64,000 nucleotides of DNA, from the UHGV virus genome UHGV-1451962; one strand, given 5' to 3'. Below the pieces are notes generated by a model. That model did no database searches and was not told the DNA's origin. It worked only from the letters and a program-made list of their open reading frames with translations. Source of the stretch: a virus. Positions 1,796-59,270 of the stretch are shown here, in pieces; position 1 is the first letter of the stretch, and each line of letters opens with the position of its first letter. Made by a program: the position numbers and the translations under genes.

Positions 1796-2737
1796 ATGAG
1801 ATTTGGTGTACGCGAAATCTGTGATGTTGTGTTGCGTGCTAAAGCAAGACAAACTCTAGGTACTCGTACTTTTTATAAGAATGAGCCTGTTCTTTATTTT
1901 GATACTTTAAAGACTTCTAGCCTAGAAGGTCAAGCTACCACAGTTTATGCTCAAGGCGGACGTGGTAACTCTAGATTAATTGCCTGGGAAGGCGAGAAGA
2001 CTCTTACATTTACAATGGAAGATGCACTGCTTTCTCCTGAAAGTTTTGCAATTCTTTCCGGTGCTGGTTTGATGGATGCTTCTGCGGAAGCCCCTATTTA
2101 TGTTCATACTACTTCTCAAGTGCAGGTTGATGCTCAAGGCAAGTTTACTGTGGATGGTAAAATTTGTTGGAATGGCGGTCGTGCACAAGAAGGAAATAAA
2201 GAAGGAACAAATTATGACTACCATAAAGAAGCAGATGTTTTCTGCATGGCTCTTGATGATGCTGGAGAGGTTAAAGTCGAGCCTTGTGTTCCTGCTTCCA
2301 TGACTTATGATGATACTAAGAAGAAAACTACTATTGTTTGTTATGCTGATGCTGAAGGTGTTGAGAAATTAGCTGAAGGTTCTGTTGTTCTTGTTGATTA
2401 TTATGTTAAGAAGATCGGCAATGCTAAGATGATTGAGATTACTCCTGATGAATTTGCTGGTAGTTATTACCTAGAAGGTTCTACTTTATTCCGTAGAGAG
2501 TCCGATGGTGTTGACATGCCTGCTGAGTTCATCATTCCTAATGGTAAGATTCAGTCTAACTTTACTTTCTCTATGGCAAGTTCTGGCGATCCTTCTACCT
2601 TTACCTTTACTATGGATGCTTTCCCTGGATATACTAAGTTTGATCCTACTAAAAAGGTTCTTGCTGCTATTCAGGTAATTGAAGATAGCACTGGTGAAGA
2701 TACCGCTTACCGCGAGAATTGTAAGGCGACTTTTTAA
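1796..2737 (+). CDS. putative major virion structural protein (capsid or tail-tube class), highly expressed
   Basis: 313-aa ORF with strong RBS (aaggagg) and by-eye GC-richer, biased codon usage (cgt/ggt/ctg) relative to neighbours; position upstream of tail genes. Confidence 0.4.
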   Translation: MRFGVREICDVVLRAKARQTLGTRTFYKNEPVLYFDTLKTSSLEGQATTVYAQGGRGNSRLIAWEGEKTLTFTMEDALLSPESFAILSGAGLMDASAEAPIYVHTTSQVQVDAQGKFTVDGKICWNGGRAQEGNKEGTNYDYHKEADVFCMALDDAGEVKVEPCVPASMTYDDTKKKTTIVCYADAEGVEKLAEGSVVLVDYYVKKIGNAKMIEITPDEFAGSYYLEGSTLFRRESDGVDMPAEFIIPNGKIQSNFTFSMASSGDPSTFTFTMDAFPGYTKFDPTKKVLAAIQVIEDSTGEDTAYRENCKATF

Positions 2738-11300: not shown

Positions 11301-13932
11301 AGTAGTAAGAAAATATAATGCTTTAGGTTCTAAGACCGCGCAGGAATCTTTTAAAGATACTCTTGATGCTGCAAAGAAAACACTTGATTTAAGAAAAGAA
11401 ATTCTAGAGCAGTATGAAAATGATCAAAAGCAAAGAGTTGAACTTTTAGAAAATATTGCTGAAGAGGCTAGAAAGAAATTTAATGAAAAATTAAGTAGTA
11501 TTAATGCTGTTATAGAAGTTAAATTAAAGATTAAAGATTTTAAAGATACTAATAGAGAAATAGGTAAAAATGTTGTTGAAGCTTTTGGCGATGCTGTTAA
11601 TTGGGGCAAAAAACCTGGACAAATTGATTTCTTTGGTATGCAAGATAACTTAGCTAAAGCTAAAGACTTAGAAGAACATATGAATCAAATATTTAATCTT
11701 ATGTCTGAGTCTGAAGATAGTGCTGATTTTGAAAGTGTTATAGATTCTTTAGAAGATTTACATGGTAATATTGCTGATACTGTTTCTGATTTAAAAGATT
11801 GGTTAGAAAATCTTAGAGAGTATTTAACTGATGTTATTGATGCAGCAGCTGACAGATTTGCACAATTTACTGATCAATTAGACCATAATGGTACTGTATT
11901 AGATTCAGTAAAAGAATTATTAGATTTACAAGGAATAACTTATAAAACTGGTAAGAATTTTGAACTTTTACAGAAAACTATTCAAGGAAGATTGGAAACA
12001 GCTACTTCTACTGCCAAATTACAAAAGCAATGGATGGAAAAAGCTGCGGAACAATTAGCGGAAGCAGAAAAAGCTTTGGCAGGAGTTACTGAAGAAGATG
12101 CAGCTTATGATACTCTTAAAAATAATCGTGATGCTTTATTAAAACAATTTAATGAATCTCAAGAAGCTATGTTAGATGCAGCTAAAGAAGCTATGGAAAC
12201 GGCAAGAGAGTATTATACTAATGCTATTGAGAAAGCTGCTTATGATTTTGAGCAAGCTATTAGTGGCGGAATGGGTTTAGAATTATTGCAGCAAAAATAT
12301 GATAATTTAATTAGTAAAGAAGAAAGATATTTAGATAAAGTTAATGAAACATATGAAGTAAGTAAATGGAATAGACAACTTCAAAAAGCAATAGATGAAG
12401 AAACTAATGAAGCTTCTAAGAATAGATTAAAAACATTACAAAAAGAAATTGAAGTAAGACGTGAAGGTAATAAATTATCTAAATATGATTTGGATATTTT
12501 AGAAGCAAAATATCAAATGACTCTTGCTCAAAATGCTTTGGATGAAGCTCAAAATGCTAAAAATTCAGTGCGGTTAGTCCGCAATGAATCCGGCAACTGG
12601 GATTATCAATTTACAGCTGATCAGTCTAAAATTGATGAAGCTACACAAAAGTATGAAGATGCGGCAAATAACTATTACAATATAGCAAAAGACCAAGTTA
12701 AAAATATGATGGATGAAATTCTGCGATTAAAACAAGATACTTTAGACCAAATTAAAGATGTTTATGAAGATGAAAGTTTAACTGAGGAAGAACGTGGAGA
12801 AAAGATTGCAGAAATTCGTAGAAATGCAAATGATAAAATCCTTTATATTCAGCAAGAATATCAAGTATCTTTAGAAGATATGACAGATGCAGGTGGAGAG
12901 ATAATTACAGAATATGGAAATACTTATAATGATGTAATGAAAATTATGGAAATGGGTACTTCTGACTTTACTGCATATTTTGAAACTGCTCTTGATGAAA
13001 TGGAAAATGCTGCTGATAATTACAATAGCACTATGGAAGAAGTCACTGGGACTACTGGTTCAAATGTAGATGCTTTAAAACAAATTATTGATGATACTAC
13101 CAAATCTACTCAAGATTTAACTACTGCGGGTACTCAAGCCGCAGATGCTGTTTGGAAGAAAATTGAAGAAGTTCGCCAAGCTTCAGAGCAATGGTCTAAT
13201 TATGCAGCGTGTGTACGTCAAGCATTAGATACTTTGTATGAAATGTCTAACTTTGTAACTACTAGAACAGTTGCCGCTTCTGTTGGTGATATGAAAGGGT
13301 ATAATTCTAATATTGACTATTCTTCTGTTATGAATGATTATTTAAGCCAAGGTGGACAAGTTGGAGATGAAATATTTAAGAGTTTAGAATATCAAAGATA
13401 TTTGAAAATTCTTGGAGAAAATTTTGAACAAGGTAAACAGTATATTTATTCTAATGAAGATTATTATAATAAGCAAAATGATCCAGAGTTTCAGAAATGG
13501 CTAAAAGATAATGGCGGAACTGGCAAATATGAGGATTTTGTTAAGAGTCATACAATAGGTTACGCAACAGGAGGCTATACTGGTTCTTTTGATAATGAAG
13601 ATGGTAAATTAGCATTTTTACATGAGAAAGAATTAGTTTTAAATCAAGAGGATACTGAAAATATTCTTTCTGCGGTTTCCGCGGTTAGAACATTAGGGCC
13701 TAATTTGTTTAAACAAATAGAAAGAATTTTGGATAATAATATAATGGCAGGGCAAAATTTATTAAATGCTCGTATGGCTAGTTCTACTACTGTTTCTAGT
13801 GATGGGCAAATAGTTGAACAGATAGTGCATATTCAAGCTGATTTCCCTGGTGTATCCAGTGCAGCAGAAATCGAAGCAGCTCTTAATAATATTGTTAATG
13901 ATGCGGCTCAATATGCTAGTATTAGAAAATAA
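5317..13932 (+). CDS. tail tape measure protein (giant, 2871 aa)
   Basis: Very long ORF with strong RBS; long coiled-coil-like Ala/Gln/Lys/Glu-rich stretches, internal hydrophobic membrane-like segments, and a Gly-Lys low-complexity repeat; lies between the chaperone-like ORF and the large tail or baseplate genes. Confidence 0.55.
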   Translation: MAKRLNYEVGFTGDTSQLKASLNDAVKALQKLGTSSTTQMTQGMREASKSALELANNLKTATNQETGKLDLVTFNRNLANSKMTISDYAKQLSQLGPTGQQAFMKVAQAVTSAELPMRRTNKVLDELWTTMKNTARWQLTSSALHGFMGALNTCVGYSKALDKSLNSIRIVTEQSAEQMADFAVQANSAAKNLSTTTTDYTDAALIYYQQGLNDKEVLDRTDITIKMANAANESAQVVSDQLTAVWNNFYDGSQSLEHYADAMVALGAATASSSDEIAGGLEKFASIADMIGLSFDYAASALATITATTRQSEDVVGTALKTIFARIQGLNLGETLEDGTDLNKYSEALSKVGVSIKDSNGDLRNMDAILDDIGAKWGTLTKDQQVALAQTVAGVRQYNQLVSLMDNWDFFEDNLKIAQNSEGELNKQADIYAESWEAARKRVKAAAEDIYDSILNPESIVAIDDVLTPFLSGIAQVVNALGGLKGIALVVGSVLTSVYSGKLVNGLQNFATNIQIMTGLQGKLTRSLQEQTVTEAENLDIIIGGNRALETEISLMREKVQLQGMINKYTKNYDQSQMLQVNQRVGVIDALRQQIMASAQKQTALLGEAEEFKTTILLDIEPKPGWEERFRQKILQFNTNMVNGPLKNLNSVFLFDEKDDITRTTEKVTASMQKLASQASSIEAVRRAYSNLNIDQKESAVVLQELIQKTGLWKAEMQNWSTPKLQEFLNNLGTQSIEASKGMQLLKQALMELSYSPEAIDQFINSIRRLAAEEHSAAEYTRLINEEIKKFTNSLQTGSIQSESGWAKTVVSMSNHLMNFGMTLSAVSNMGKVFKESMEGNITAGEAFIQIMTNLGMILMSGSSLFMALSKSMGALVSVYTGVNTSVAALTFVTKLNTAAEEGNIAAKIANVAITKLLTVSEGSLAAAMGITIGVLALFAAGIVFAVKIIDGLIVTQKEASQAIADATQNYTDQKSKLDELNSSLEQTRQKIEELESKDSLSLVEQDELANLKQQEASLERQADLRERIVKAKQAEMAYAIADNFDKKYDKTYKVEPKGRTGADTSNFKTQEDLDKWYNSLNSDQQAKALDQYQNWTQQIAEATAQMTSEVGEDLAELEQDYANYLGAVDSGAIVADPSKIADMQDKLAELRKLIYPTDNQYYEMVIRPVLDDESFDEVRDKIFRALSSGDIKGAGLALTDEMRSAIEAAGISVDDLFNQIAERMSQARETIKSEMGGTEEQLNKLTAEDWDIILTLDLENIGSFRELMKAIENAKNTDLKVKVDTSELDAAKDKIESLNTNEEPLEKALMSYKEQGYLTMDQTYELIKANEEYAQYIKKVGDEYVLTTQSLTDFTEMEKAEKLALDQAIEAMQNKGKVDRDYAQQYVDLYSSLIESSKNWSDQERADSGENFDKNTEALRRQAQAFQEGKISASEYFDAINQRVSETGDNFAKLSDGIDGLKESDYAKTMISSTTALADGFKDLISEVEAGGTNMQEYYAGAVKGTKALMNITAKSNKYITKTADGYKVVTDNIDDATKATQDYKDAQKKVQNLNTWEKQVDQAEGFKKAIDDITSYYDYLKNYLNDNNWLELPDNFDTTTTKFKNMCDTMAADIWSLKDTNAEAFSAIMAHMETENAGFDSSLITSQSQLASAMQGNATIASSAINGLAAQSQISIGTLCQIGGQLLQSLASAISSFSYTIQATGVVDNPGGIGLGGGLVDKIGALLTTGGKIPFEWDMPSAHIDLTGSGSGGSPMFSTTGSARAQKVNGSGKSNYIRSKDTGAASKGESSGLLENISKFGTALEEYGKQSVLSQGLKAFAPSGGGTGGRTLNPSGISTDNNRPSGGGGGKGKGGKGKGGGGKGKGGKGKGGGGGSGSDDSPEIEDEEIFDDRYHDINNRLEEQSQLLDKIDTAKDRAFGVKKLEKYKEKIEAINKEQELYKEKLKKTEEYLKEDLTDLQKNFSGVKLNIDSDSKALLNYEDLEKWAIEEYNKVVRKYNALGSKTAQESFKDTLDAAKKTLDLRKEILEQYENDQKQRVELLENIAEEARKKFNEKLSSINAVIEVKLKIKDFKDTNREIGKNVVEAFGDAVNWGKKPGQIDFFGMQDNLAKAKDLEEHMNQIFNLMSESEDSADFESVIDSLEDLHGNIADTVSDLKDWLENLREYLTDVIDAAADRFAQFTDQLDHNGTVLDSVKELLDLQGITYKTGKNFELLQKTIQGRLETATSTAKLQKQWMEKAAEQLAEAEKALAGVTEEDAAYDTLKNNRDALLKQFNESQEAMLDAAKEAMETAREYYTNAIEKAAYDFEQAISGGMGLELLQQKYDNLISKEERYLDKVNETYEVSKWNRQLQKAIDEETNEASKNRLKTLQKEIEVRREGNKLSKYDLDILEAKYQMTLAQNALDEAQNAKNSVRLVRNESGNWDYQFTADQSKIDEATQKYEDAANNYYNIAKDQVKNMMDEILRLKQDTLDQIKDVYEDESLTEEERGEKIAEIRRNANDKILYIQQEYQVSLEDMTDAGGEIITEYGNTYNDVMKIMEMGTSDFTAYFETALDEMENAADNYNSTMEEVTGTTGSNVDALKQIIDDTTKSTQDLTTAGTQAADAVWKKIEEVRQASEQWSNYAACVRQALDTLYEMSNFVTTRTVAASVGDMKGYNSNIDYSSVMNDYLSQGGQVGDEIFKSLEYQRYLKILGENFEQGKQYIYSNEDYYNKQNDPEFQKWLKDNGGTGKYEDFVKSHTIGYATGGYTGSFDNEDGKLAFLHEKELVLNQEDTENILSAVSAVRTLGPNLFKQIERILDNNIMAGQNLLNARMASSTTVSSDGQIVEQIVHIQADFPGVSSAAEIEAALNNIVNDAAQYASIRK
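10858..10950 (+). repeat. Gly-Lys low-complexity coding repeat inside the tape-measure gene
   Basis: Encodes GGGGGKGKGGKGKGGGGKGKGGKGKGGGGGSGS; DNA shows near-tandem copies of aaaggaaaaggcggaggtggt. Confidence 0.7.
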
Positions 13933-26964: not shown

Positions 26965-27402
26965 TTATATAATATGATAATAAGGTTTTTCTTCATCAAA
27001 GATTTTCCATCTAAGAAAATCATCTAAAATAATTCCTATTAGACCTAGAATAAACCAAAGACAACTAAAAGATAAACATATTTGTCCTTTATAATTAAAA
27101 GGTAAATGTGAATAATCCCAAATATTAAGTTGTAATTGAATGTTTAAAATATATCCAAATAAAAATTCTAAACTTGTTATAATTGCGGTTCCAATTAATC
27201 CTTGAGCCAATAAAGACCAATTCCAAGGAATATTTTCATTTAAGCTACCTAAAATTAAAAAAGATAAACCGCCTAAGATAAACATTGACCAATGAGTATT
27301 TCCTGAATGTATATATGTTTTGTAAACAAATTCAATTAACCAGTAAATACTTCCGCCAATCAAAAATAATATAGAATTTCTAAAAAAAGAATTAATTTTC
27401 AT
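26965..27402 (-). CDS. integral membrane protein (function unknown)
   Basis: 145-aa ORF with several hydrophobic helix-length segments; overlaps the upstream minus-strand ORF by 11 nt. Confidence 0.4.
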   Translation of the reverse strand: MKINSFFRNSILFLIGGSIYWLIEFVYKTYIHSGNTHWSMFILGGLSFLILGSLNENIPWNWSLLAQGLIGTAIITSLEFLFGYILNIQLQLNIWDYSHLPFNYKGQICLSFSCLWFILGLIGIILDDFLRWKIFDEEKPYYHII

Positions 27403-28051
27403 ATTTTAATTCTATGGCTTTAATTTCCTTATAATTTTTAGCAGTATAAATTTGTGTTTTATATTGTTGCATTTTTTTATAATAAGGATAAACAAAATCA
27501 GAAATAGCTAAAGCTAAAGCAGTCAAATTTTCAACTGTCCAAGATGTACATTCTTCTTGGCGAGCATGCCATTCTAATCTAGGATTCTCTGCTCCAGCCT
27601 GAACTGCCATAGAATATTGATTCATATTTAGGCTAATTTCTGATTGATCTTCTTCTGTAACTCCATATTGCTTTCCATCAATCCAAGTCAAAGGATTATT
27701 AATGAGGAAATTAGCGAAAGCTTTTTTATTTTCTTCTTGTTTCATTTTTTGATATTCTTCTAAAGAATAGTAATATGTTAATTCATTTTTTTCATTATCA
27801 TATTTATAAAAATTAGGTTCATAATCTTCTGGAATATTACCATCAAAAGATAAGATTCTTACTGCATCAATAGAACCTGTCATATCTGAATTAGCCAAAA
27901 TGAAATGGCTATTGCAATCTGAGCCTATTACTCCTGTAGCTTCACCTTCCGAGCAAGCAATGACAATACTTGGGTTGGATTGTAATTTGATGTAGCGGAT
28001 TTCCGCAAGGATATCGACTACTATATTTTCTCTATTGATTAATAAATACAT
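27392..28051 (-). CDS. hypothetical protein, translationally coupled to the DGR reverse transcriptase
   Basis: 219-aa ORF whose start overlaps the RT stop by 1 nt; no recognisable motif. Confidence 0.4.
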   Translation of the reverse strand: MYLLINRENIVVDILAEIRYIKLQSNPSIVIACSEGEATGVIGSDCNSHFILANSDMTGSIDAVRILSFDGNIPEDYEPNFYKYDNEKNELTYYYSLEEYQKMKQEENKKAFANFLINNPLTWIDGKQYGVTEEDQSEISLNMNQYSMAVQAGAENPRLEWHARQEECTSWTVENLTALALAISDFVYPYYKKMQQYKTQIYTAKNYKEIKAIELKYEN

Positions 28052-29307
28052 TATAATATTTCAACTCCTTTAAATAATGAATGGAAATAATTATCAAGAT
28101 TTTGTATAATATAAAAAGTAGTACCTTTATTTATATGTTCTCTAAAACCTCGATATGATTCTTGAATTTCTATATCAGTTATTTTACCTTGTAGCCAAAG
28201 TTGGTGCATTTTTCTCATTTTTCTATATTGTCGCTTTATTTTCTTTTTAAATGGAGTTTGAATAATTTTATTCGTATTAGTTAAATAAAAATCCCATTTT
28301 AAATATTTAAATGGATTATGTTTATCCGAACGTCTTTTATGAGGATAATTATTTTTATCTAGTTTTATTGGACTAATTTTAATTATTTTAGTTTTTCTTT
28401 TGTTACATTTTAAATGTATTTTATTTAATTCATTTTCAATTTTATTAAGACATTCTTTTAAATAATCTTTGTCATTATGCAAAATATAAATATCGTCCAT
28501 ATAACGTCCATAATATTTTAAATGCAAATGCTCTTTTGCATAATGGTCAATTCCATTTAATGCCAATAAAGCTAATAATTGAGATGCTTGACTACCTAAA
28601 CCTAAACTTTTATGATTAAATTCATAATAAGTACAATTTTTATAAAATTGTTTAGGATAAATTATCTTATATTTTTGTTTTTTGATGATATAGTATTGTT
28701 TATTAGGAATAGGAACTGTATCTTTTGTGACTGAAAAACAAAAGGTATCAATAATATAATCAATTAATTTAAATACTCGTTTTTCTTTAATATAATGTTT
28801 TGCCATTTGCTTTAAAGAATTATGGTCTATTGAATCAAAAAATTTTTGAATATCAATTCTTAAACCATAAAAAGATTTTCCTAAACCATATGTTCTGTGC
28901 GCTGCTTGTAAATGTTTACGCACTTCTAGCAAAGCAAAATCAATTCCTTTTCCTTTTAATGTAGCACAATTATCATAAATAAATTTTGGAGTTAGTTCTG
29001 GAATAAGAACTTGCGAACATAATGTATTTTGTGCCAATCTGTCATAAATATGGCACGCTCTTATATCTCTGGGTTTGCCCCGCTCAATTATACTAAAACT
29101 GTTAAAAACTAATTGTTCATAACTGTCATTTTCTAATTGTTCTTTAAGCGTTAAGATGTTATTTAATCTATTTTCTTCAAAATTAACTGTACTATCTTTC
29201 CATCTTACGTTTCGGCAAATAGAATAAGAAGAATCATAAAAAGCGTCAAAATTACAAAAACGCTGGAAAAGATTTTCTTCTATAAAAAATTCTCCTTTTT
29301 TTATCAT
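28051..29307 (-). CDS. DGR-type reverse transcriptase
   Basis: 418 aa; RT motif 2 (GLRIDIQKFFDSIDH), DGR-type motif 4 (GLGSQASQ = GxxxSQ), catalytic YMDD (YGRYMDDIYIL); lies directly downstream of the TR in the canonical target-avd-TR-RT order. Confidence 0.85.
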   Translation of the reverse strand: MIKKGEFFIEENLFQRFCNFDAFYDSSYSICRNVRWKDSTVNFEENRLNNILTLKEQLENDSYEQLVFNSFSIIERGKPRDIRACHIYDRLAQNTLCSQVLIPELTPKFIYDNCATLKGKGIDFALLEVRKHLQAAHRTYGLGKSFYGLRIDIQKFFDSIDHNSLKQMAKHYIKEKRVFKLIDYIIDTFCFSVTKDTVPIPNKQYYIIKKQKYKIIYPKQFYKNCTYYEFNHKSLGLGSQASQLLALLALNGIDHYAKEHLHLKYYGRYMDDIYILHNDKDYLKECLNKIENELNKIHLKCNKRKTKIIKISPIKLDKNNYPHKRRSDKHNPFKYLKWDFYLTNTNKIIQTPFKKKIKRQYRKMRKMHQLWLQGKITDIEIQESYRGFREHINKGTTFYIIQNLDNYFHSLFKGVEIL

Positions 29308-29588
29308 GCGGTGCTAGATTGTGTGCTCTGACACGCACATCCGCAATCTTAATTAATTATCTGTATAGATAAAAGGTTAAATTCTCCTTAAATGAAAGCT
29401 ATCTATTATAATCTAAGTCTTTTATTTAATATTTCCTCTCCTTCTTGGTTTTAAAACCAATGCGTCCAGAAAATACCAAAATAGATGAGTTATAACATAG
29501 GTTATAATTTTCTGGGGTAACACTTAGTCGTCTCAGTCGATGTCGCCTGCGGCTCCATCACCAGAGACAGTTAGAGTTCTCATCTAAT

Positions 29589-29693
29589 CGGGCGCGAGGT
29601 AATTGTTGTTGTTGTAGTTGGTATTGTTCGCATTACCATCAGAGTTGACATTGCACACATTGTTCGTGTTGTTCGAGTTGTAGTAGCGAGACC
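29589..29693 (-). repeat. DGR template repeat (TR)
   Basis: About 105 nt, 84/105 identical to the VR; 20 of 21 differences lie at plus-strand T (adenine on the transcribed minus strand); non-coding, between the Avd-like ORF and the RT. Confidence 0.85.
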
Positions 29694-29726
29694 CGCGATA
29701 TTTTAGAATTTAACCAAATAAAAAAA

Positions 29727-30191
29727 TTATTTGTATCGCTGAGAATAAATTAGATTATCTCTATTTATTCTATCAAGAAGATTTTGTTTTAATTTGTAAG
29801 TAAGTTTAGCAACATATTTGAAAGATTTATTTTTCTTTTTATTATTTAACCCATATTCATAAATACATAAATCTAATTGCCTTAAAATTGAATCACAATA
29901 TCTTATTGATTTATTAAAGTAATCTGCTCTTTCAACTAAAGTTTTTTTATTTTTTAGATTGATTAAACTAGCAGAGAAAGCATATCCATGTGCGTTTTTG
30001 GCACATTTTAAAATATCTGCACCAAAAGCTGAATAATAGTATGGATTACCAAGAATACCTGGTTTAATATGAGAACCATCATCTAATTCTTGATATGGAC
30101 GAACTAAAATTAATACTTGATGGACTAACTTTCTTGCATCATTTAAATAATCATTTTTAGATTGATGCCTATCTTTTTTTCTTACTGACAA
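29727..30191 (-). CDS. avd: Avd-like accessory variability determinant (putative)
   Basis: 154-aa basic (Lys/Arg-rich) ORF with TTG start after aaaggagg, placed between VR and TR as Avd is in known DGRs; assignment by position and composition only. Confidence 0.5.
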   Translation of the reverse strand: MSVRKKDRHQSKNDYLNDARKLVHQVLILVRPYQELDDGSHIKPGILGNPYYYSAFGADILKCAKNAHGYAFSASLINLKNKKTLVERADYFNKSIRYCDSILRQLDLCIYEYGLNNKKKNKSFKYVAKLTYKLKQNLLDRINRDNLIYSQRYK

Positions 30192-30225
30192 ATTAAAAAC
30201 CTCCTTTAAATAACGTACAAGAAAT

Positions 30226-30254
30226 ATTATACCAGAAAATTTTTAAAAAGTCAA
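30226..30254 (-). promoter_or_regulatory. sigma70-like promoter for the avd-TR-RT transcript
   Basis: On minus strand: TTGACT, 17-nt spacer, TATAAT (exact consensus -10), preceded by an A/T-rich UP-like tract; about 35 nt upstream of the avd TTG start. Confidence 0.5.
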
Positions 30255-30315
30255 AGAAAAAAAATTTTTAGAAAAAATTTTTTTCCCAGAAAAGGTGAAA
30301 GCATTTTTATACTAT

Positions 30316-30341
30316 GGCATTGGCCCTTTTGGGCCAATGCC
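30316..30341 (-). promoter_or_regulatory. GC-rich hairpin 3' of the VR (candidate DGR target-recognition hairpin)
   Basis: Perfect 11-bp inverted repeat ggcattggccc / gggccaatgcc with 4-nt loop, about 30 nt downstream of the target-gene stop; no U-run on the minus strand, so it is not a canonical terminator. Confidence 0.5.
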
Positions 30342-30369
30342 AATATAACCTTACTGTATAACTTTACAG

Positions 30370-32154
30370 TTATCCAATAACGAAAGCGGGCGCGAGGTAA
30401 CGGTAGTTGGCGTAGTAGGTAAAGTCCGCACCACCATCAGAGTCGACACGGCACACATAGCCCGTGTAGTCCGAGTAGTAGTTGCGAGACCGCTCCCAAT
30501 ACCATTTGGAATCTCCTGAACTGTTACCATTAGCATCTTGAATGTTTTTTATACGGGAGCTGTCACTTGTGTAATAATCATAAGCAGCATTATATCCTTT
30601 AGTACATTCTGCATTGGAAACAGTAGAATTAGCAGTGCTGATTGGAGAATAACTATCTAATCCCATTTCTCTCTCAGAAGGAATCCAAACAGTTTCGTTA
30701 TTATAACTAACATTAGCACTTCTATTATCATCCCAATTATCGCAAGTACCTTTAGATACTGTTTTTATAGATGCTTTAGCAGCACAAGCATTATAAAAAT
30801 TTTGACAATAACTTCTAGCATTAGAACCAATCCATTGTGCGCTATTATCACCAAAAGTAGTCATATTCGGCAAGAGATAAACACTATGAAAAGCTAAAGT
30901 TTTATCTCCATCTTTGTCATAGCCAATACAACGCATTGTAACAGCATTTGCTCCTAAAACATTAGTAGATAAATTCATCTTTTTAGTTTTACCAACTAAA
31001 GCTTGACGTTCTGAAGCAGAAGAATTGTTAAGCCAAGACTTTAAGCCAGCCCACCAAGAAGCATCTCCCGCAGCACTCTCATTTCCCCAAGTCCAATATG
31101 TAGCAGTAGCAGTAATTTTTTTATTCGCGGGAGTTGTATAATTGGTACTGGCTGCTATTGATACAGTAATAGTAGCAGTTCCCGCGGTTGTACCATTGCC
31201 TTTAATGGTAATTGTTTTACCGCTTACTGTTGCTGAAGCCACATTAGAATTAGTAGAAGTTACAGAAATTGTACCAGTAGAATTAGTGGTCACAGTAACT
31301 TTTACACCAGTAGAATAATTAGATGCGTCAATAGAAACAGTAGAAGTGCTTAGACTTAATGTTCCTGTTGCTTTTTGAATAGACCAATCAACATTTTTCG
31401 CGGTTGTTGTCTTATCAGGCCATCTGTAATTATTTTTAGGAGTAAAAGTAGCTGTATATTTTCCTGCATTAATTCCCGATGTAGTTCCTCCAATAGTCAT
31501 GTAACTTGTATTATAATTTGACCAATTTGGACTTTGCGAATTGGCGTTATAAGTTAAAGTTCCAGTTTGAGAAGGAATAGGAACTGTTTTTCTTTCTACT
31601 GTTACAGAAAAAGTAGTAGTTTTAGTAATACTATTTTCTGTATAAGAAACAGTAATTGTTTGAGTACCAACTGTATTTAAAACAGAAGGTGAAGTTGTCC
31701 AACCAGAAACAGTAGCGGTTTTACCATCAGAATAAGTGGCAGTAACAGACATTCCGGCAGATTCAAATGTCTCGCCATATTCATAAATTGTCTTAGTTGG
31801 TTTTGTGCTTGTGATGCTGGTTAGTGCATGGATAACAGTAACTGCTTGCTCGGCGGTACAAGTAACTCCTCCTTCAGAGTAAGTAATAGTAACTTTAGTT
31901 ACTCCATCAGTTAAAGGAGAAGGTGTTACAGTATATCCAGTTACCGCAGTAGAAGAAACAACAATATTATCAATGGCATAATTGGCAGTTATAACCATTC
32001 CTGTTGTTTCAAATTCTTGTCCAGCAACGTAAGATGTACGGTTTGGTGGAGTAGTAACTTCAATAGAGTGGAGTGCTATTGAGCTTCCGCCACCTTTTCC
32101 GCCTTGTTCAGTTAAAATGCATTTAACAGGCAAGGTATAAGACCTCCTTATCAA
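30370..32154 (-). CDS. DGR target protein: Ig-like repeat protein with C-terminal lectin-fold-like variable domain
   Basis: 594-aa ORF; tandem Thr/Ser-rich Ig-like segments (e.g. GVTKVTITYSEGGVTCTAEQAVTVIH), then a C-terminal domain containing WIPSEREMGL and the VR; likely true start is the TTG at 32133 (9 nt after aaggagg) rather than 32154. Confidence 0.8.
   Translation of the reverse strand: MIRRSYTLPVKCILTEQGGKGGGSSIALHSIEVTTPPNRTSYVAGQEFETTGMVITANYAIDNIVVSSTAVTGYTVTPSPLTDGVTKVTITYSEGGVTCTAEQAVTVIHALTSITSTKPTKTIYEYGETFESAGMSVTATYSDGKTATVSGWTTSPSVLNTVGTQTITVSYTENSITKTTTFSVTVERKTVPIPSQTGTLTYNANSQSPNWSNYNTSYMTIGGTTSGINAGKYTATFTPKNNYRWPDKTTTAKNVDWSIQKATGTLSLSTSTVSIDASNYSTGVKVTVTTNSTGTISVTSTNSNVASATVSGKTITIKGNGTTAGTATITVSIAASTNYTTPANKKITATATYWTWGNESAAGDASWWAGLKSWLNNSSASERQALVGKTKKMNLSTNVLGANAVTMRCIGYDKDGDKTLAFHSVYLLPNMTTFGDNSAQWIGSNARSYCQNFYNACAAKASIKTVSKGTCDNWDDNRSANVSYNNETVWIPSEREMGLDSYSPISTANSTVSNAECTKGYNAAYDYYTSDSSRIKNIQDANGNSSGDSKWYWERSRNYYSDYTGYVCRVDSDGGADFTYYANYRYLAPAFVIG
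30387..30491 (-). repeat. DGR variable repeat (VR) at the 3' end of the target gene
   Basis: Matches the TR with substitutions almost exclusively at TR adenine positions; encodes the C-terminal ~35 residues (…YYSDYTGYVCRVDSDGGADFTYYANYRYLA…); shared GC-rich 3' boundary cgggcgcgagg. Confidence 0.85.
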
Positions 32155-32424: not shown

Positions 32425-34170
32425 ATGGCTGTTCAATGTGTACTTGTCGGAAAAGGCAAGGATGATGTATTTACTGCTGTTTATGGCGAAACTACATTTG
32501 ATAAAGTGTTAAAAGCTTATAATGAAAATAAAGTAGTTCAAGTGATTTATCAAAATCGTATTTATTATTTAGATAATACTACTGTTGTAGATTCTCCTGA
32601 AGCATTTTCTTTTATTTCTGCTTTTAGTAATCAAAATGATGAAGCTGGTGAAATAAAGCATTATGTAATAAGTTTAATGACAGGAGATAGTTGGTCTGGG
32701 CCTTTCTTACAGAAATCTACTCCAGCAACTCACGCGAATACTCATAGTAAAAATGGTGATGATCCACTTACCCCCGCAGATATTGGAGCTATGGAATTAT
32801 CAGAAAATGTTCTTAAACAATCAAATGAAGATATTACTTCTCAAGTAGCGCAAGCTTTATTTGGGGATTTAGTTCCTTTTAGCGGTGGAACCATGACTGG
32901 TTTGTTAAATGTTCTTACTCCTGTTAGAGATAGTAATGCTACTACTAAAAAGTATGTAGATGATGCTTTGAGTGAGAAAATTGGAATGGATGGCATTGGC
33001 GATTTGCATGTATGGAAGAAGACTATAATAACAAAACAGGAGATTCCAGCAAGTTTTACTTTAGGTGATGTACACTCTGGTTCGTTTCGTTTTGTTAGTG
33101 GTGAAACTAATGTGTTGTTAGTAGGTACTCCTAAAGTTAATGAGAGTGGTGTCGTTACCTTAACAAACTCTGCGCAGTATAATTTTAATTATAATTCTTC
33201 ATCTCCTAGTATATCTGATCTGCGAGGACAGTATTGCATGTTTACCATGATAGCCGATCAATTTTCTAGTTTTACTGCCAATAAAGTTTTTTATATACCC
33301 ACTGATGCAAACTATATTTCTTTATCAAGTTCTAAAAATATTACTAAATATCAAGATGTTAATGGTACACCTAAAATTCCTGCCGAAGTAACTACTACCT
33401 ATCCCGCATCTACTAATCCCAATGCGTATCAAGAGGGGAGCGATGCAAAACCAGCAGGATATGTACTTGGTAATGTGATAACAGGTTCATTTTGTATTGG
33501 TAATACAACAGCACCTACGAGAGCTGCTTATTATGTCGCATCTGATATTTCTGTATCTGATAATGGTGTTTTATCTATTTCAACACAAACAAATATAACT
33601 ATTGGTGGTAATTTTTTTGTATCTAGCCGTGATTTAATTGCTGGTAAATTTATACAAATTTATAATAAAGGGTCTATGTCTTCTGTTTTATCTGAACCAT
33701 TCACAACAGTACCAGGCCCAATTATTTATATTCCGAATGATGTAAACTTAACGTCTGGCGGTGATGGAAATTTAAATTTATATATTGATCGCTACCAACC
33801 TATTACTGGCTACGCTGCTATCCCCGCAGGCACCACTATTGAATATCTGGGGAAGTTGGGAGATAAGACTAGGGTAATAATTGGCTCGTATATTGGGACA
33901 GGGGTCTGCGGGGCAGAGAATCCGACCAAAATAAAAACGAGTTTTTTACCGAAACTTGTAGCAATAAATGGAGTAGGAAATACCGGCAGTACGGGCATTA
34001 TTCTGTTTTTTCGAGATATGAACTATGCGTTCTCAGAAATCGGCTCAAGTACCAACTTTAACTTTACTAATATAACCTGGTTATCAGACGGAGTACATTG
34101 GTATTCTAGCAAAGTCCTTATGCAGGGGAATAAGCAGGGGGCAATTTATAAATACATTGTTATCGGTTAA
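32425..34170 (+). CDS. tail fibre protein
   Basis: 581-aa ORF with RBS (aaaggag); contains the tail-fibre motif FSGGTMTGLLNV and an HANTHSKNGDDPLTPADIGA segment; last ~110 codons are visibly GC-richer. Confidence 0.6.
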   Translation: MAVQCVLVGKGKDDVFTAVYGETTFDKVLKAYNENKVVQVIYQNRIYYLDNTTVVDSPEAFSFISAFSNQNDEAGEIKHYVISLMTGDSWSGPFLQKSTPATHANTHSKNGDDPLTPADIGAMELSENVLKQSNEDITSQVAQALFGDLVPFSGGTMTGLLNVLTPVRDSNATTKKYVDDALSEKIGMDGIGDLHVWKKTIITKQEIPASFTLGDVHSGSFRFVSGETNVLLVGTPKVNESGVVTLTNSAQYNFNYNSSSPSISDLRGQYCMFTMIADQFSSFTANKVFYIPTDANYISLSSSKNITKYQDVNGTPKIPAEVTTTYPASTNPNAYQEGSDAKPAGYVLGNVITGSFCIGNTTAPTRAAYYVASDISVSDNGVLSISTQTNITIGGNFFVSSRDLIAGKFIQIYNKGSMSSVLSEPFTTVPGPIIYIPNDVNLTSGGDGNLNLYIDRYQPITGYAAIPAGTTIEYLGKLGDKTRVIIGSYIGTGVCGAENPTKIKTSFLPKLVAINGVGNTGSTGIILFFRDMNYAFSEIGSSTNFNFTNITWLSDGVHWYSSKVLMQGNKQGAIYKYIVIG

Positions 34171-34730: not shown

Positions 34731-35357
34731 GTGAAAAAGGTGTTATATGGTTATGCAAGAGTTTCTTCCCGCGACCAAAATATAGATAGACAAATAATTG
34801 CATTAAAAGAGGTCGGCGTAGAAGAAGAAAATATCTTCATAGATAAACAATCAGGTAAAGATTTTAATAGACCTTCTTATCAAGAATTATTAGAAACAAT
34901 TAAAACAGGAGATATGGTAATTATAAAATCCATAGATAGATTAGGTCGAAATTATTCAGAAATTTTAGAACAGTGGAGAATTATTACTAAAGTTCTGAAT
35001 GTAGATATTAAAGTTATTGATATGCCGTTACTCGATACCTCCTACGGGGATGGTACATTAAATAACTTTATAGCTGATTTAGTTTTACAAATTCTCTCTT
35101 TTCAGGCAGAACAAGAGAGAATTTGTATTAAACAGCGACAAGCAGAAGGAATAGCTGCTGCAAAACAAAAAGGAGTTAAATTTGGCCGACCCCGCAAACA
35201 GCTTCCTTCTAATTTTGAAGATTTATATTATAGATATTTAAATAATGAACCAGTGGATAGATTATCAAAAGATTGTAAAGGATTATCTAAATCTACTTTG
35301 CGGTTGCGACTACAAGAACGTCATTCTAAAGATAAAGCATTGGGTGTAATTATTTAA
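34731..35357 (+). CDS. small serine recombinase (resolvase/invertase family)
   Basis: 208 aa, GTG start after agaggtg; N-terminal catalytic motif YGYARVSSRDQ, then DRLGRN; C-terminal HTH region with GRPRK. Confidence 0.8.
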   Translation: MKKVLYGYARVSSRDQNIDRQIIALKEVGVEEENIFIDKQSGKDFNRPSYQELLETIKTGDMVIIKSIDRLGRNYSEILEQWRIITKVLNVDIKVIDMPLLDTSYGDGTLNNFIADLVLQILSFQAEQERICIKQRQAEGIAAAKQKGVKFGRPRKQLPSNFEDLYYRYLNNEPVDRLSKDCKGLSKSTLRLRLQERHSKDKALGVII

Positions 35358-35414: not shown

Positions 35415-35819
35415 ATGAATTATTATGAATTATGGACACAAATTTGGCAGATTTGTTTAGTCCCCTTATTTGCGGCTTTAACTGCTTTTGTTGTTAAATA
35501 TTTAAATGCTAAAAGTCAAGAAGTTTCTAAAAATATAAATAATGCAACTGCTGAAAAATATATAGAAATGATTAATAATACTGTTACAAAATGTGTTATT
35601 GCTACAAATCAAACTTATGTTAATAGTCTTAAAGAGCAAGGTAAGTTTGATGTAGAAGCTCAAAAGAAAGCTTTTAAACAAACTTATGAAGCAGTTATAA
35701 GTATTTTAAGTGAAGATGCAAAACAATATATTAAAGAAACAACCAATGATTTAAATACGTATTTAACACAGTTAATAGAAGCAGAGGTAAATAAACGTAG
35801 ATTAGAACCAGAAAAATAA
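35415..35819 (+). CDS. membrane-anchored protein (function unknown)
   Basis: 134-aa ORF with N-terminal hydrophobic segment (ICLVPLFAALTAFVV) and charged helical remainder. Confidence 0.4.
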   Translation: MNYYELWTQIWQICLVPLFAALTAFVVKYLNAKSQEVSKNINNATAEKYIEMINNTVTKCVIATNQTYVNSLKEQGKFDVEAQKKAFKQTYEAVISILSEDAKQYIKETTNDLNTYLTQLIEAEVNKRRLEPEK

Positions 35820-35824
35820 TTAAA

Positions 35825-35862
35825 GGCTCCCTTAGTTTTTCGCTAAGGGAGCCTTTTTTTTT
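35825..35862 (+). terminator. rho-independent terminator
   Basis: Stem ggctcccttag / ctaagggagcc with 7-nt loop followed by ttttttttt. Confidence 0.65.
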
Positions 35863-35972
35863 GTCAAAATTTTTTCCAAATTTTTTGACAAAATTGGGAA
35901 ATCGTATGGGAATAAAATTTATATATGTATGGAAGGTAAAGGAAATAAAAAAATTTTTAGAAAGGAAAAATT

Positions 35973-36410
35973 ATGTATCCATACAATAACAATAATTATT
36001 ACCCACAGCAAACAATGCGTCAGCCGCAAACATATATCAATCCAACTCCGCAGATAATGGCGCCTCCGGGGTTGAAAGGACGTATGGTTTCTTCATTAGA
36101 AGAAGCAAGGGCAACAAGTATTGATTTTGATGGCTCTGTTTTTTATTTTCCAGATTTAGCGAATAAGAAAATTTATACAAAGCAAATTAATATGGATGGT
36201 ACTGCTACATTAAATATGTATGAGTTAAAAGAAGGCCCAACTTCTAATAATTCTACTTATGTAACAAGAGAAGAATTTAATAATGCTTTGAATAAAATTC
36301 AAATGAACTTTAATTTGTTAAATAATCAGCAAGAACCACCTGTGGCGCAAGTTCCTCCTCCTGAACCTGCTCCAGAAGAAACGCAAAATGCGCCTACATA
36401 TAAATTTTAA
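35973..36410 (+). CDS. hypothetical Pro/Gln-rich protein
   Basis: 145-aa ORF with proline-rich N- and C-termini. Confidence 0.4.
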   Translation: MYPYNNNNYYPQQTMRQPQTYINPTPQIMAPPGLKGRMVSSLEEARATSIDFDGSVFYFPDLANKKIYTKQINMDGTATLNMYELKEGPTSNNSTYVTREEFNNALNKIQMNFNLLNNQQEPPVAQVPPPEPAPEETQNAPTYKF

Positions 36411-36421
36411 GGAGGAAAATA

Positions 36422-36664
36422 ATGCAAGCAAATCCAATGCAAATTTTATCAATGATTAAAGGAGGTAAAAATCCTCAACAATTAGTGATGAATATTTTAG
36501 AGCAGCAAGCACAAAATAATCCTATGGGTGCTAACTTATTACAGCTAGTTAAAGATAATAAGACTGCGGATATTGAACAAATTGTTAGAAATTATGCCAA
36601 AGGTCAAGGCATAGATTTCGACAAAGAATTTAATGCTTTTAAACAAATGTTAGGCATTAAATAA
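36422..36664 (+). CDS. hypothetical small protein
   Basis: 80-aa ORF with strong RBS (aaggagg). Confidence 0.4.
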   Translation: MQANPMQILSMIKGGKNPQQLVMNILEQQAQNNPMGANLLQLVKDNKTADIEQIVRNYAKGQGIDFDKEFNAFKQMLGIK

Positions 36665-36692
36665 TTTTATAAAACAAAAGGAGAATAAAAAA

Positions 36693-37529
36693 ATGTTTAA
36701 TACTGCAAATTCTAGCTATTCTTTAGCTGATATCGCCGCAGCTACCGGCGGTAATCGTTGTAATGATGATGGTTTTGGTGGAGGCAATGGCTGGTGGGTC
36801 ATCCTTCTGTTCTTATTCATGATGAATGGATGGGGCTGGGGTGAAAACGGCTATGGTCGTAGCGTGTCACCAATGGGAGGTACAACTACCCGTGAAGAAA
36901 TTGCATATGGCTTTGATATGAATGGCTTGGAGAACTCTGTTCGTGGTATTCAAAATGGCCTATGTGATGGTTTTTATGCTCTTAACAATAGTCTTTTAAC
37001 CGGTTTTGGCAATCAAGCTTTGAATACTCAGCAAGGTTTTGCTAGTACCGATAATGCTATTTGTACTCTTGGTTATCAGACTGCTCAGTTGGCTAATGGT
37101 ATCACTTCTGATATGAACCAGAATACTAATACTATTACTCTTGGTATGAATAATGGTTTTAATGGTGTTACTGCTGGTTTAACTGCTTTGGGTACACAGT
37201 TACAGTCTTGTTGCTGTGAAACCGGGCGTGCTATTGAGCGTGGTTTTAGTGACTTAAACTATAACTTAGCTACTCAGTCTTGCGACACTCGTAGAGCTGT
37301 TCAAGATAGCACTCGTGAAATCTTAGATTTCTTAACTCAGGATAAGATTGCTTCCTTACAGTCCGAGAATCAGACTTTGAAATTTGCGGCTTCTCAGCAA
37401 GCCCAAAATGCTTATCTGGTTAGCGAACTTGGTCAGAAAGCTCCTATCCCCGCTTATGTAGTGGCTAATCCTTATTGCAACTGCGGTTCCGCAAATTCTT
37501 GCAATAGCTGCTGCTCTAGCATTTATTAA
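36693..37529 (+). CDS. hypothetical Gly/Trp-rich, Cys-rich protein with atypical codon usage
   Basis: 278 aa; N-terminal GNGWWVILLFLFMMNGWGWG hydrophobic segment, C-terminal Cys cluster (CNCGSANSCNSCCSS); by-eye GC-richer codons than neighbours. Confidence 0.4.
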   Translation: MFNTANSSYSLADIAAATGGNRCNDDGFGGGNGWWVILLFLFMMNGWGWGENGYGRSVSPMGGTTTREEIAYGFDMNGLENSVRGIQNGLCDGFYALNNSLLTGFGNQALNTQQGFASTDNAICTLGYQTAQLANGITSDMNQNTNTITLGMNNGFNGVTAGLTALGTQLQSCCCETGRAIERGFSDLNYNLATQSCDTRRAVQDSTREILDFLTQDKIASLQSENQTLKFAASQQAQNAYLVSELGQKAPIPAYVVANPYCNCGSANSCNSCCSSIY

Positions 37530-37553
37530 TTAAATTTGGAGGATAACTAATTT

Positions 37554-37976
37554 ATGGAAATTACAGCCAATGCTGCTCAATCAGTTGCAGCCAATCAAAA
37601 TGTTCTTATGACTGATACAGTAGTTGGTGGAAGTTGTTCAATGGTTCATCGTAATGGTAGTGGATTAGTTACTTTGCGCGGCCTGGCTAGCACCCAGTGC
37701 CGCGCTCGTTTTAGAGTAACTTTTGGCGCTAATATAGCTGTTCCTACTGGTGGAACCGCAGGTGCTATTTCTTTAGCTATTGCTATTAACGGCGAACCTG
37801 TTGCTACAACAACCATGACAACTACTCCAGCCGCAGTCGATCAGTACAATAACGTGTTTAGTAGTATCTTTTTAGATGTTCCTAAAGGTTGTTGTTCTCA
37901 GATTAGTATAAAAAATATTAGCACTCAAACAGTTAGCGTTCAAAATGCTAATCTAATTGTTGAACGTGTTGCTTAA
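37554..37976 (+). CDS. hypothetical Thr/Ala/Gly-rich beta-type protein
   Basis: 140-aa ORF with RBS (ggagga); GC-richer codon usage like the preceding gene. Confidence 0.4.
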   Translation: MEITANAAQSVAANQNVLMTDTVVGGSCSMVHRNGSGLVTLRGLASTQCRARFRVTFGANIAVPTGGTAGAISLAIAINGEPVATTTMTTTPAAVDQYNNVFSSIFLDVPKGCCSQISIKNISTQTVSVQNANLIVERVA

Positions 37977-37990
37977 TTTGGAGGTACAGT

Positions 37991-38545
37991 ATGGAAAGAC
38001 TAAAAAATATGAGAAATTGTTTAATGGCTTGTGTTGAAGGGGAATTGGCCCATCTTGATACTGTTGATGCTCATGAATTAGGTGAAGCAGTAGATATGAT
38101 AAAAGATTGTGAAGAAGCGATGTATTATCATACTATTAGAAAAGCTATGGAAGAGTCTGATTATAATATTAATAATAGAGATATGGATAAACATCATGGT
38201 AGAATGTATTATCCTACTCCTAGAATGTATTATACGATTGATCCTAAAATGAAGAAACATATAAAAGATGAGGATGATTATGTATATTATGATGATATGT
38301 ACATGATGCCTTATAAGCCTTTAGAAAAAATGCGGGATAAGCGTGAAGGTCGTAGTCCTATAAGCCGCAAAACTTATATGGAATCAAAAGAAATGCACAA
38401 AGATAAGCCCACTCAGCTAAAAGAGTTAGAACACTATATGCAGGAATTAGCTAGTGATATAGTGGAAATGATAGAAGGTGCATCTCCCGAAGAAAAACAA
38501 ATGATACAACAACGCATTAATTCTATTTCCGCTAAAATACAATAA
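37991..38545 (+). CDS. hypothetical protein
   Basis: 184-aa ORF with RBS (ggaggt); Met/Tyr/Asp-rich charged protein. Confidence 0.4.
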   Translation: MERLKNMRNCLMACVEGELAHLDTVDAHELGEAVDMIKDCEEAMYYHTIRKAMEESDYNINNRDMDKHHGRMYYPTPRMYYTIDPKMKKHIKDEDDYVYYDDMYMMPYKPLEKMRDKREGRSPISRKTYMESKEMHKDKPTQLKELEHYMQELASDIVEMIEGASPEEKQMIQQRINSISAKIQ

Positions 38546-38877
38546 TGTATACAGTAAATGTAAATGGTGAAACATGGACAATAGAATTTGTTTCTTCTTC
38601 TAATTATAATTTAATGAGAAGTGATGGAACTTATACTATTGGAGTTTGTGATGATGAAACTAAAACCATTTATATAGATAAAAATTTAAATAATAGTTAT
38701 TTGCAAAAAGTTTTGTGCCATGAGATAACCCATGCTGCAATGTTTAGCTATGATATAAATTTATCCCTTGAACAAGAAGAATTATTAGCTGATTTATTAG
38801 CAACATATGGAGAAGAAGTAGTACAAAAAGCAAATATATTATTTAAACGTATAAAAGAAAATAGGGGAAGCTATTAA
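38545..38877 (+). CDS. small HExxH-motif protein (putative zinc metallopeptidase-like)
   Basis: 110-aa ORF; contains VLCHEITHAAMF (HExxH); start overlaps the upstream stop. Confidence 0.4.
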   Translation: MYTVNVNGETWTIEFVSSSNYNLMRSDGTYTIGVCDDETKTIYIDKNLNNSYLQKVLCHEITHAAMFSYDINLSLEQEELLADLLATYGEEVVQKANILFKRIKENRGSY

Positions 38878-38897
38878 ATTAGCTTCCCCTATTTTTT
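38861..38897. terminator. bidirectional rho-independent terminator at strand switch
   Basis: Stem ataggggaagct / agcttcccctat with 8-nt loop, T-runs on both flanks; lies between convergent genes. Confidence 0.6.
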
Positions 38898-59003: not shown

Positions 59004-59270
59004 TCAATCATCAATATCGTCAGGGGTAAAGTTCATACCTTCCTCGGTCAACTGAAGCAGTTTAATAGCCTTATGAGTACCATCAGGTAGCTCAACCTCA
59101 GCGGGAACACGAATGCCATAACCCTTACGCTGAATAGCGGAAGTAAAAATACCATCGACCTGACGCTTCTCCAAACCTAGTGCGCCAGCCACATCAGCAC
59201 TTGTCATATCAGTACCAGCGTTATTCTTCAAATACTCAAAAACCTTCTTAGAATTGTCGGACATTGCCAT
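59004..59270 (-). CDS. hypothetical small protein
   Basis: 88-aa ORF with GC-richer codons. Confidence 0.35.
   Translation of the reverse strand: MAMSDNSKKVFEYLKNNAGTDMTSADVAGALGLEKRQVDGIFTSAIQRKGYGIRVPAEVELPDGTHKAIKLLQLTEEGMNFTPDDIDD

Follow-up and report, generated by a model that had tools for sequence, protein, structure and literature searches.

A six-gene operon that is undescribed and moves between many gut phages is present in the window analyzed here, a 64,000-nucleotide (nt) stretch of UHGV virus genome UHGV-1451962, with two adjacent genes, termed A and B, as its conserved core. The two genes are co-transcribed and fixed as a pair, and structure prediction gives solid grounds for viewing the A protein as a rod with a membrane-type hydrophobic segment and the B protein as a stand-alone jelly-roll domain of the C1q/TNF type. 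The module consists of recognizable parts, a C1q-like head and a hendecad rod, in a new arrangement, and is very widespread. The most economical reading of the pair, put forward tentatively, is a two-piece stalk and knob anchored in a membrane.

Predicted architecture of the A and B proteins

Both open reading frames (ORFs) had been called in an original prediction made from the DNA alone and were recovered exactly, as were the features it had pointed out: a Gly/Trp-rich hydrophobic segment near the N-terminus of A, a Cys cluster at its C-terminus, and a B product rich in Thr, Ala and Gly (Ala 13%, Thr 11%, Val 11%, Gly 8%). The AlphaFold2 monomer prediction of A, made with 121 homologues, displays a disordered N-terminus, a short helix at residues 34-44, a disordered Gly/Trp-rich linker, one long helix at residues 79-246 and a low-confidence Cys-rich tail. 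The long helix is modeled with a predicted local distance difference test score (pLDDT) of ~90 or higher from ~140 to 240, and its hydrophobicity has a sharp period of 3.65 residues, equal to 11/3, which is the mark of hendecad coiled coils. The same unit is seen across the 121 homologues, in which anchor-to-anchor distances fall at 62, 73 or 84 residues and at 39 or 50, and insertions and deletions come in units of 11 residues, occasionally 7 or 18. Steps of this kind keep the coiled-coil register, and it is the length of the rod (~25 nm here) that varies. Within the family the N-terminal peptide, the WW-hydrophobic segment, the first 45 residues of the rod, a CCC triplet at residues 173-175, the last third of the rod and the PxPAYVV.NP motif are kept, the middle of the rod being variable; five Cys lie within the last 17 residues of A.

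The hydrophobic segment falls within residues 28-55 (FGGGNGWWVILLFLFMMNGWGWGENGYG) and has a mean Kyte-Doolittle value of 2.5 over its 11-residue core and 1.1 over 19 residues. Because the core is 11 residues long, residues 31-49 are termed membrane-inserting instead of transmembrane (TM), and from these values would form a short or atypical membrane segment. Searches of Pfam, NCBIfam, PADLOC and the PDB sequences with A, as a single sequence or as profiles, gave no informative match, and a Foldseek search of the A model against the PDB found no match, a single long helix carrying little signal. The best profile match among PDB sequences was heptad repeat 1 (HR1) of a coronavirus (E=0.04, not significant), a resemblance that is probably why crAss-like homologues of A bear the label 'spike protein/glycoprotein'.

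The B protein is modeled by AlphaFold2 as a ten-strand sandwich (pLDDT 79, predicted template modeling score 0.75), which corresponds to the ten-strand jelly-roll β-sandwich of about 130-140 residues that defines the C1q/TNF superfamily fold. No Pfam family was matched at E<=1, including BclA_C (PF18573), C1q (PF00386) and TNF (PF00229); no NCBIfam model was matched, and nothing significant was found among PDB sequences with the single sequence or a profile. Identities to TNF-type structures are 5-15%, so any relatedness is at most at the superfamily level. Of the checks that the original prediction had proposed, remote-homology searching by sequence and profile was therefore uninformative, and it was structure prediction that supplied the A rod and the B sandwich. 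The B protein opens directly at strand A, with no signal peptide and no collagen-like (GXY) stalk or leader, and an upstream extension of the ORF is impossible. Its family forms 804 representative clusters at 50% identity, the best 150 of which are all 71-196 amino acids (aa) long with no collagen or coiled-coil fusion, and the nearest structure models from viruses, those of uncultured gut sipho-, myo- and podoviruses, also stand alone, at 130-142 aa. To our knowledge, all characterized proteins with this fold (BclA, ExsFA, C1q, TNF ligands) form trimers, which either cap a trimeric stalk, as in BclA, C1q, TNF ligands and phage fibers, or stand alone, as in ExsFA.

Residues C49, C113 and C114 are widely conserved in B and, judging from jelly-roll topology, would be at the same end of the sandwich as both termini. 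Of 117 A-B pairs, nearly all have the Cys features of both proteins; a comparison of Cys loss in B with Cys loss in A found them near-universal in both, leaving no variance to correlate.

Operon structure, distribution and codon usage

Genes A and B are the third and fourth of six closely spaced genes bracketed by two strong terminators (Table 1). At least three of the six, A and B included, have strong GGAGG ribosome-binding sites; together with the terminators at both ends and the tight spacing, these indicate a single transcription unit. No known function attaches to any of the six proteins, PADLOC-DB profiles gave 0 matches to them at E<=0.1, and searches of Pfam, NCBIfam and PDB sequences were as uninformative for the partners of A and B as for the pair. 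The product of gene 1 has a prion-like, disordered N-terminus rich in Gln, Asn, Pro and Tyr, followed by a conserved small β domain, a short helix and a Pro-rich tail, and that of gene 5 has helical N- and C-terminal domains around a low-complexity center rich in Tyr, Met, Arg and Asp. The 116-nt leader ahead of gene 1 contains a perfect inverted repeat that overlaps a TTGACA hexamer and may serve as promoter or operator. No convincing -10 element was found, and no similar copy of this leader motif is present elsewhere in the window.

Table 1. Features of the A-B operon and of the surrounding window
Feature	Coordinates	Strand	Remarks
A residues 1-30	36693..36782	+	conserved N-terminal peptide MFN..GYSLxDIAAxTG, net acidic
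A residues 31-49	36783..36839	+	hydrophobic core WWVILLFLFMM flanked by Gly/Trp/Asn
A residues 79-246	36927..37430	+	predicted single long helix, hendecad periodicity, ~25 nm, holds invariant C175
A residues 247-278	37431..37526	+	conserved PxPAYVV.NP motif, then Cys-rich low-confidence tail
Operon, genes 1-6	35973-38877	+	
Operon gene 1	35973..36410	+	145 aa, phrog_21718
Operon gene 2	36422..36664	+	80 aa, small helical, M/Q/N-rich
Operon gene 3 (A)	36693..37529	+	278 aa, phrog_16490
Operon gene 4 (B)	37554..37976	+	140 aa, phrog_20016
Operon gene 5	37991..38545	+	184 aa
Operon gene 6	38545..38877	+	110 aa, minimal HExxH metallopeptidase-like (DUF6782 / Peptidase_M78-like, phrog_1233)
Intrinsic terminator	35822..35856	+	15-bp stem and T run; ends upstream holin-like gene; left operon boundary
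Perfect inverted repeat	35859..35893	+	TTTTGTCAAAA / TTTTGACAAAA; 11-nt arms, 13-nt spacer
Bidirectional terminator	38856..38897		16-18-bp stem; shared with convergent replication block; right operon boundary
Virion structural gene	1796-2737	+	late gene
Tape measure gene	5317-13932	+	2,871 aa; late gene
Further tail protein genes	up to ~26900	+	late genes
Diversity-generating retroelement (DGR) cassette	26965-32154	-	
DNA invertase gene	34731-35357		
Holin-like gene	35415-35819		phrog_13712; directly upstream of operon
Replication block	from 38889	-	RuvC, dUTPase, NrdD, Pol III alpha-type polymerase, helicases, primase, ligase, topoisomerase II

The A and B families each hold at least ~7,700 clusters at 90% identity, none with a functional name, and no description of either family was found in the literature. 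Close relatives of B are encoded on at least 586 contigs in IMG/VR. In the best 80 of these loci, on contigs of up to 201 kb, A is followed by B in 80/80 with gaps of 18-182 nt, gene 5 lies downstream in 80/80, gene 2 lies upstream in 76/80 and gene 6 is present in 69/80; B is the most conserved product (median 69% identity) and A and gene 5 are the least (44-45%). In GTDB, A is immediately upstream of B at 32 of 35 loci, the others having one inserted ORF, one contig end and, at locus L003, no A. In an otherwise collinear relative (L043 9216-9979), A is split into ORFs of 145 and 98 aa, either by a frameshift or by an assembly error.

A similar series of genes is found in another, unrelated set of phages, of 35-45 kb, to which the cultured Butyrivibrio phage Ceridwen belongs: one Cys-peptidase-like, a gene-1 homologue, one of ~75 aa, A, B, a gene-5 homologue and one of ~105 aa. 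Alignment with hhalign relates gene 1 to its small-phage counterpart with 96% probability and gene 5 to a distant one in the same position (phrog_28802) with 87% probability, and a protein of gene 2-like size occupies the gene 2 slot (phrog_22984). Nothing but the module is common to the window and Butyrivibrio phage Ceridwen or Dulem virus 33. In the small temperate relatives the module follows endolysin and holin genes and precedes the integrase, and in two integrated prophages it lies directly against the host mnmE and rex genes; a slot between lysis genes and integrase is the classic position for accessory genes. The original prediction had suggested cargo as one option, and this is borne out in the sense of a mobile accessory module, as the pair with two to three partner genes recurs in otherwise unrelated phages and, in temperate relatives, takes up a prophage-end slot.

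The range of A-like genes (phrog_16490) is wider still: C. perfringens phages and Bacteroides phage C3_41T2LP carry them, as do at least six crAss-like genomes and a virus assigned to Methanomassiliicoccales. The module lies downstream of holin and carboxypeptidase genes in one crAss-like phage, and among early and recombination genes, not beside lysis genes, in CPD1 and C3_41T2LP. In the three cases inspected (CPD1, C3_41T2LP and cr116_1), a small Cys-containing β-rich protein is encoded downstream of the A-like gene, and in C3_41T2LP and cr116_1 an HExxH peptidase is nearby. These small proteins are not detectably homologous to B, with hhalign giving a probability of <=4% and hmmsearch a best score of 8.4 bits. 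In CPD1 an extra 207-aa Cys-rich ORF (CPD1_038, L038 4173-4796) interrupts the module. Genes annotated as endonuclease or I-HmuI stand immediately upstream of the A-like gene in two unrelated phages, Dulem virus 33 (L002 4413-4964) and C3_41T2LP (L039 2907-3527), which together with the extra ORF of CPD1 suggests homing-endonuclease traffic at the locus that could help the module spread. Natural chimeras were also found (P0271, P0274, P0349, P0245 and L003 213-899), each joining, in frame, an N-terminal stretch of gene 1 or of the Cys-peptidase-like gene to a C-terminal stretch of B; the joints lie at shared ..DGSG.. or ..GSG.. microhomology, and gene 2 and A are deleted.

The G+C (GC) content is 0.303 over the whole window and rises to 0.417 in A and 0.407 in B, the top values among genes of more than 100 aa. 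The GC-richer codons that the original prediction had attributed to both genes were assessed by comparing G/C-ending codons with the number expected from the amino acids of each gene and the codon usage of the window, a test of GC at third positions (GC3). This confirmed a genuine synonymous bias in A, with 78 such codons where 37.6 were expected, the highest score in the window (z=7.2); in B the figures are 26 and 18.7, a difference that is not significant (z=1.8), and the GC excess of B is due to a composition rich in Ala, Thr and Gly, with GC at the first and second codon positions both 0.50. The codon adaptation index, with the gene at 1796-2737 as sole reference, was too noisy to rank A and B, small genes coming out on top, and was replaced by this test and by codon tables. 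The claimed similarity to that gene, the putative major tail gene, holds qualitatively: all three share Arg codons of the CGT/CGC type (fractions of 0.89 in A and 0.83 in B, against 0.26 overall), few NNA codons and little or no ATA, the last being absent from A and largely avoided in B. In low-GC Firmicutes such a pattern marks translational selection. The high expression proposed earlier is thus supported as a prediction for A, from its translational-selection-type bias and strong GGAGG site; B shares the GGAGG site and has no significant synonymous GC3 excess. The other explanation offered, recent acquisition, is rejected, as A and B are GC-richer than their flanks in 28/28 relatives (mean excess 7.6 and 6.7 points) over flank GC contents from 0.23 to 0.58; the excess therefore belongs to the genes, equilibrated with each genome. 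GC-rich islands in AT-rich phages can accordingly reflect amino-acid composition and expression bias and not foreign origin, a caution for the method in general.

Possible functions of the pair

From the position of the operon alone, an accessory role at the cell envelope or membrane is more likely than a core virion function. With a stalk, two conserved terminal peptides and many Cys on the side of A and a head on that of B, the tentatively favored stalk and knob is the most economical way to combine them. The pair forms the conserved core of a self-contained and mobile accessory operon, predicted to be highly expressed. After its N-terminal peptide, A would enter a lipid membrane through the short Trp/Gly-flanked hydrophobic segment and continue as a hendecad coiled coil of ~170 residues (~25 nm), tuned in length by register-preserving steps and ending in the Cys-rich tail; an oligomeric A rod may thereby be anchored in the host cytoplasmic membrane. 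A trimer of B could bind the rod through a terminal peptide of A, as ExsFA does with the leader of BclA, and joining may also, or instead, be through Cys-Cys or metal links. The products of genes 1 and 5, with their low-complexity regions, the small helical gene 2 product and the peptidase-like gene 6 product would then be assembly or processing partners.

The precedent for a separate head comes from the Bacillus exosporium, where ExsFA clamps the terminal peptide of a stalk, the BclA leader, at its subunit interfaces (PMC12357932). The comparison with ExsFA/BxpB of the basal layer (PDB 7r1m, 9h3d) is based on the modeled fold and stand-alone nature that B appears to share with them; B is without sequence similarity to these proteins and without a sporulation context. 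In BclA and F-BclA (exosporium nap and F-ENA tip; PDB 1wck, 9h38), in contrast, the head is the C-terminal domain of one collagen-like polypeptide with an exosporium leader and a sporulation setting, whereas B is a separate 140-aa phage protein, one carrier of which infects Butyrivibrio. A BclA-type fiber has its head fused to an N-terminal collagen-like stalk and leader, neither of which is present in B, and the candidate stalk here is an α-helical hendecad coiled coil instead of collagen. Compared to TNF-superfamily ligands such as EDA-A1 (1rj7), the putative stalk and head come from two separate genes, with a long coiled coil for the stalk, and B has no export signal.

Several points weigh against the stalk and knob. 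The hydrophobic core of just 11 residues makes a true TM span of A uncertain, and contact between A and B is drawn by analogy, with no A-B fusion among the best 150 B representatives. As B has no export signal, it would meet A only after lysis if the rod faces outward. A conserved base with a variable apex was looked for in B and no such asymmetry was seen. Many A-like genes precede Cys-containing β-rich proteins that are not detectably homologous to B, and B persists without A in chimeras P0271, P0274 and P0349 and at locus L003.

An unlikely alternative is a virion fiber or decoration, in which A would trimerize into a 25-nm head or tail fiber with B as the distal knob, much as in adenovirus or reovirus fibers or the BclA nap. 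Fibers combining a rod and a TNF-like knob do occur in phages, namely the Sf6 tail needle gp9, PRD1 P5 and the short tail fiber of cyanophage A-1(L); however, in these the rod and knob are one polypeptide, the genes lie in the tail or vertex module, and there is no hydrophobic membrane segment of the type found in A, which as a strongly hydrophobic and conserved stretch would be needless in a soluble fiber. The operon is separated from the structural genes of the window by terminators, the DGR cassette and the invertase gene, and the module turns up sporadically in phage records labeled as sipho-, podo- or myoviruses, with the CPD1 and C3_41T2LP copies among early and recombination genes. The structurally mapped phage crAss001 is absent among the matches listed for crAss-like A-like and B-analogue proteins; its head fibers were considered as counterparts and set aside, as the two described are small, unlike proteins. 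The lack of a variable apex also makes B unlike a host-specific receptor binder, so the host interaction of the original prediction is not supported in the form of a variable binding surface. The decoration proteins that it had also suggested are less likely given the membrane-type segment of A, the separate transcription unit and the sporadic distribution. The autonomy of the operon, this distribution, the lack of a listed crAss001 match and the hydrophobic segment of A are the reasons a non-virion membrane role is favored.

Lysogenic conversion or superinfection exclusion is quite unlikely as the function; the products would here be expressed from the prophage, and late in virulent phages, and would alter the envelope or block incoming phages. 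The module fits a moron or lysogenic-conversion cassette, by definition a dispensable unit, in having its own terminators, lying at a prophage end beside the integrase or host mnmE and moving laterally between unrelated backbones, and it has a predicted membrane anchor; no convincing promoter was found. Known exclusion proteins are of small size and limited to particular phage groups, whereas this module is conserved over flank GC of 23-58% and across phyla, and its six genes and strong expression-type codon bias are unusual for exclusion genes. No PADLOC defense model was matched, and the phage of the window looks virulent, given a full replication apparatus and no integrase found in its 64 kb.

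Participation of A in lysis or release is very unlikely. Under this explanation A would act as a spanin or class I fusion protein, its Gly/Trp-rich N-terminal segment perturbing or fusing membranes through coiled-coil zippering at release. The module does adjoin lysis genes in many genomes, following the holin-like gene in the window, endolysin and holin in temperate relatives and holin and carboxypeptidase in one crAss-like phage, a slot held by spanin genes in phages of Gram-negative hosts. In common with the i-spanin Rz and the class I fusion protein S2 of coronaviruses, A would combine a membrane-active N-terminal segment, which in our reading resembles viral fusion peptides in composition, with a long polar coiled coil and placed Cys; i-spanins also use a coiled coil with intermolecular disulfides. 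The HR1 match described above fits the same picture but is not significant, and Foldseek gave nothing. As a two-component spanin (Rz/Rz1) the operon offers the i-spanin half in A with no o-spanin lipoprotein: no signal peptide, lipobox or strongly hydrophobic N-terminus was found in any operon product, and the only PHROG spanin match to gene 1 is at E=0.079. As a class I fusion protein A has a fusion-peptide-like segment and an HR1-like rod, with no HR2 and no C-terminal TM segment as a second anchor. The hosts are mostly monoderm Clostridia with no outer membrane to fuse, the CPD1 and C3_41T2LP modules are not beside lysis genes, and B is given no role.

That the deviation is a trivial matter of composition, in two hypothetical genes that are unrelated and share no function, is scarcely conceivable and is refuted by the synteny data: amino-acid composition fully explains the GC excess of B, but the adjacency and order of A and B are kept in more than 110 loci on unrelated phage backbones, and the synonymous bias of A and the very large size of both families also speak against it.

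Genomic setting and implications

The phage genome to which the window belongs is large, AT-rich (30.3% GC) and of siphovirus type, and the operon sits at the junction between a plus-strand late block and a minus-strand replication block. The A and B genes are outside the structural module, as the original prediction had stated. The product of 1796-2737 is probably the major tail protein, as read from its position before the tape measure; at ~1.5 Å per residue, the 2,871-aa tape measure corresponds to a tail of roughly 0.4 micrometre. The DGR is complete, with a reverse transcriptase at 28051-29307 (phrog_1423, E 3e-75), a template repeat at 29586-29693 and a variable repeat at 30384-30491. 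Over its 108 nt the template repeat matches the 3' end of a 594-aa Big_3 Ig-domain gene (30370-32154) at 80% identity, with nearly all mismatches at template adenines, and this target gene has an unusual GC of 0.54 at second codon positions. No endolysin was recognized anywhere in the 64-kb window, and related contigs of at least 130 kb show the same gap near the module. A synonymous GC3 excess was also found for an 88-aa ORF on the minus strand (59004-59270; GC3 0.39, z=6.2) and for a 581-aa ORF on the plus strand with no family match (32425-34170; z=5.4), which are probably other highly expressed genes.

In one large gut siphovirus lineage, with genomes of roughly 100-200 kb, A and B form a fixed pair, and they recur in temperate phages of Clostridia; neither is covered by a Pfam, NCBIfam or PADLOC model, and their PHROGs entries carry the label 'unknown function'. 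As the module crosses host phyla and occupies an accessory-gene slot, it is a good candidate for a general, unnamed step of anaerobe phage biology, and the existence of cultured carriers (Butyrivibrio, C. perfringens and Bacteroides phages) makes it directly testable. In its most specific form, the proposal is of a split, Cys-cross-linked stalk and knob at the membrane, a coiled-coil counterpart of TNF ligands and BclA, used by phages of Clostridia, Bacteroidota (crAss-like included) and possibly methanogenic archaea; so fully specified, it is improbable. If true, the device would act at the cytoplasmic membrane, the one structure those hosts share, and may be a coat made by the phage for surfaces or vesicles, or a fusogen-like device for membrane remodeling.
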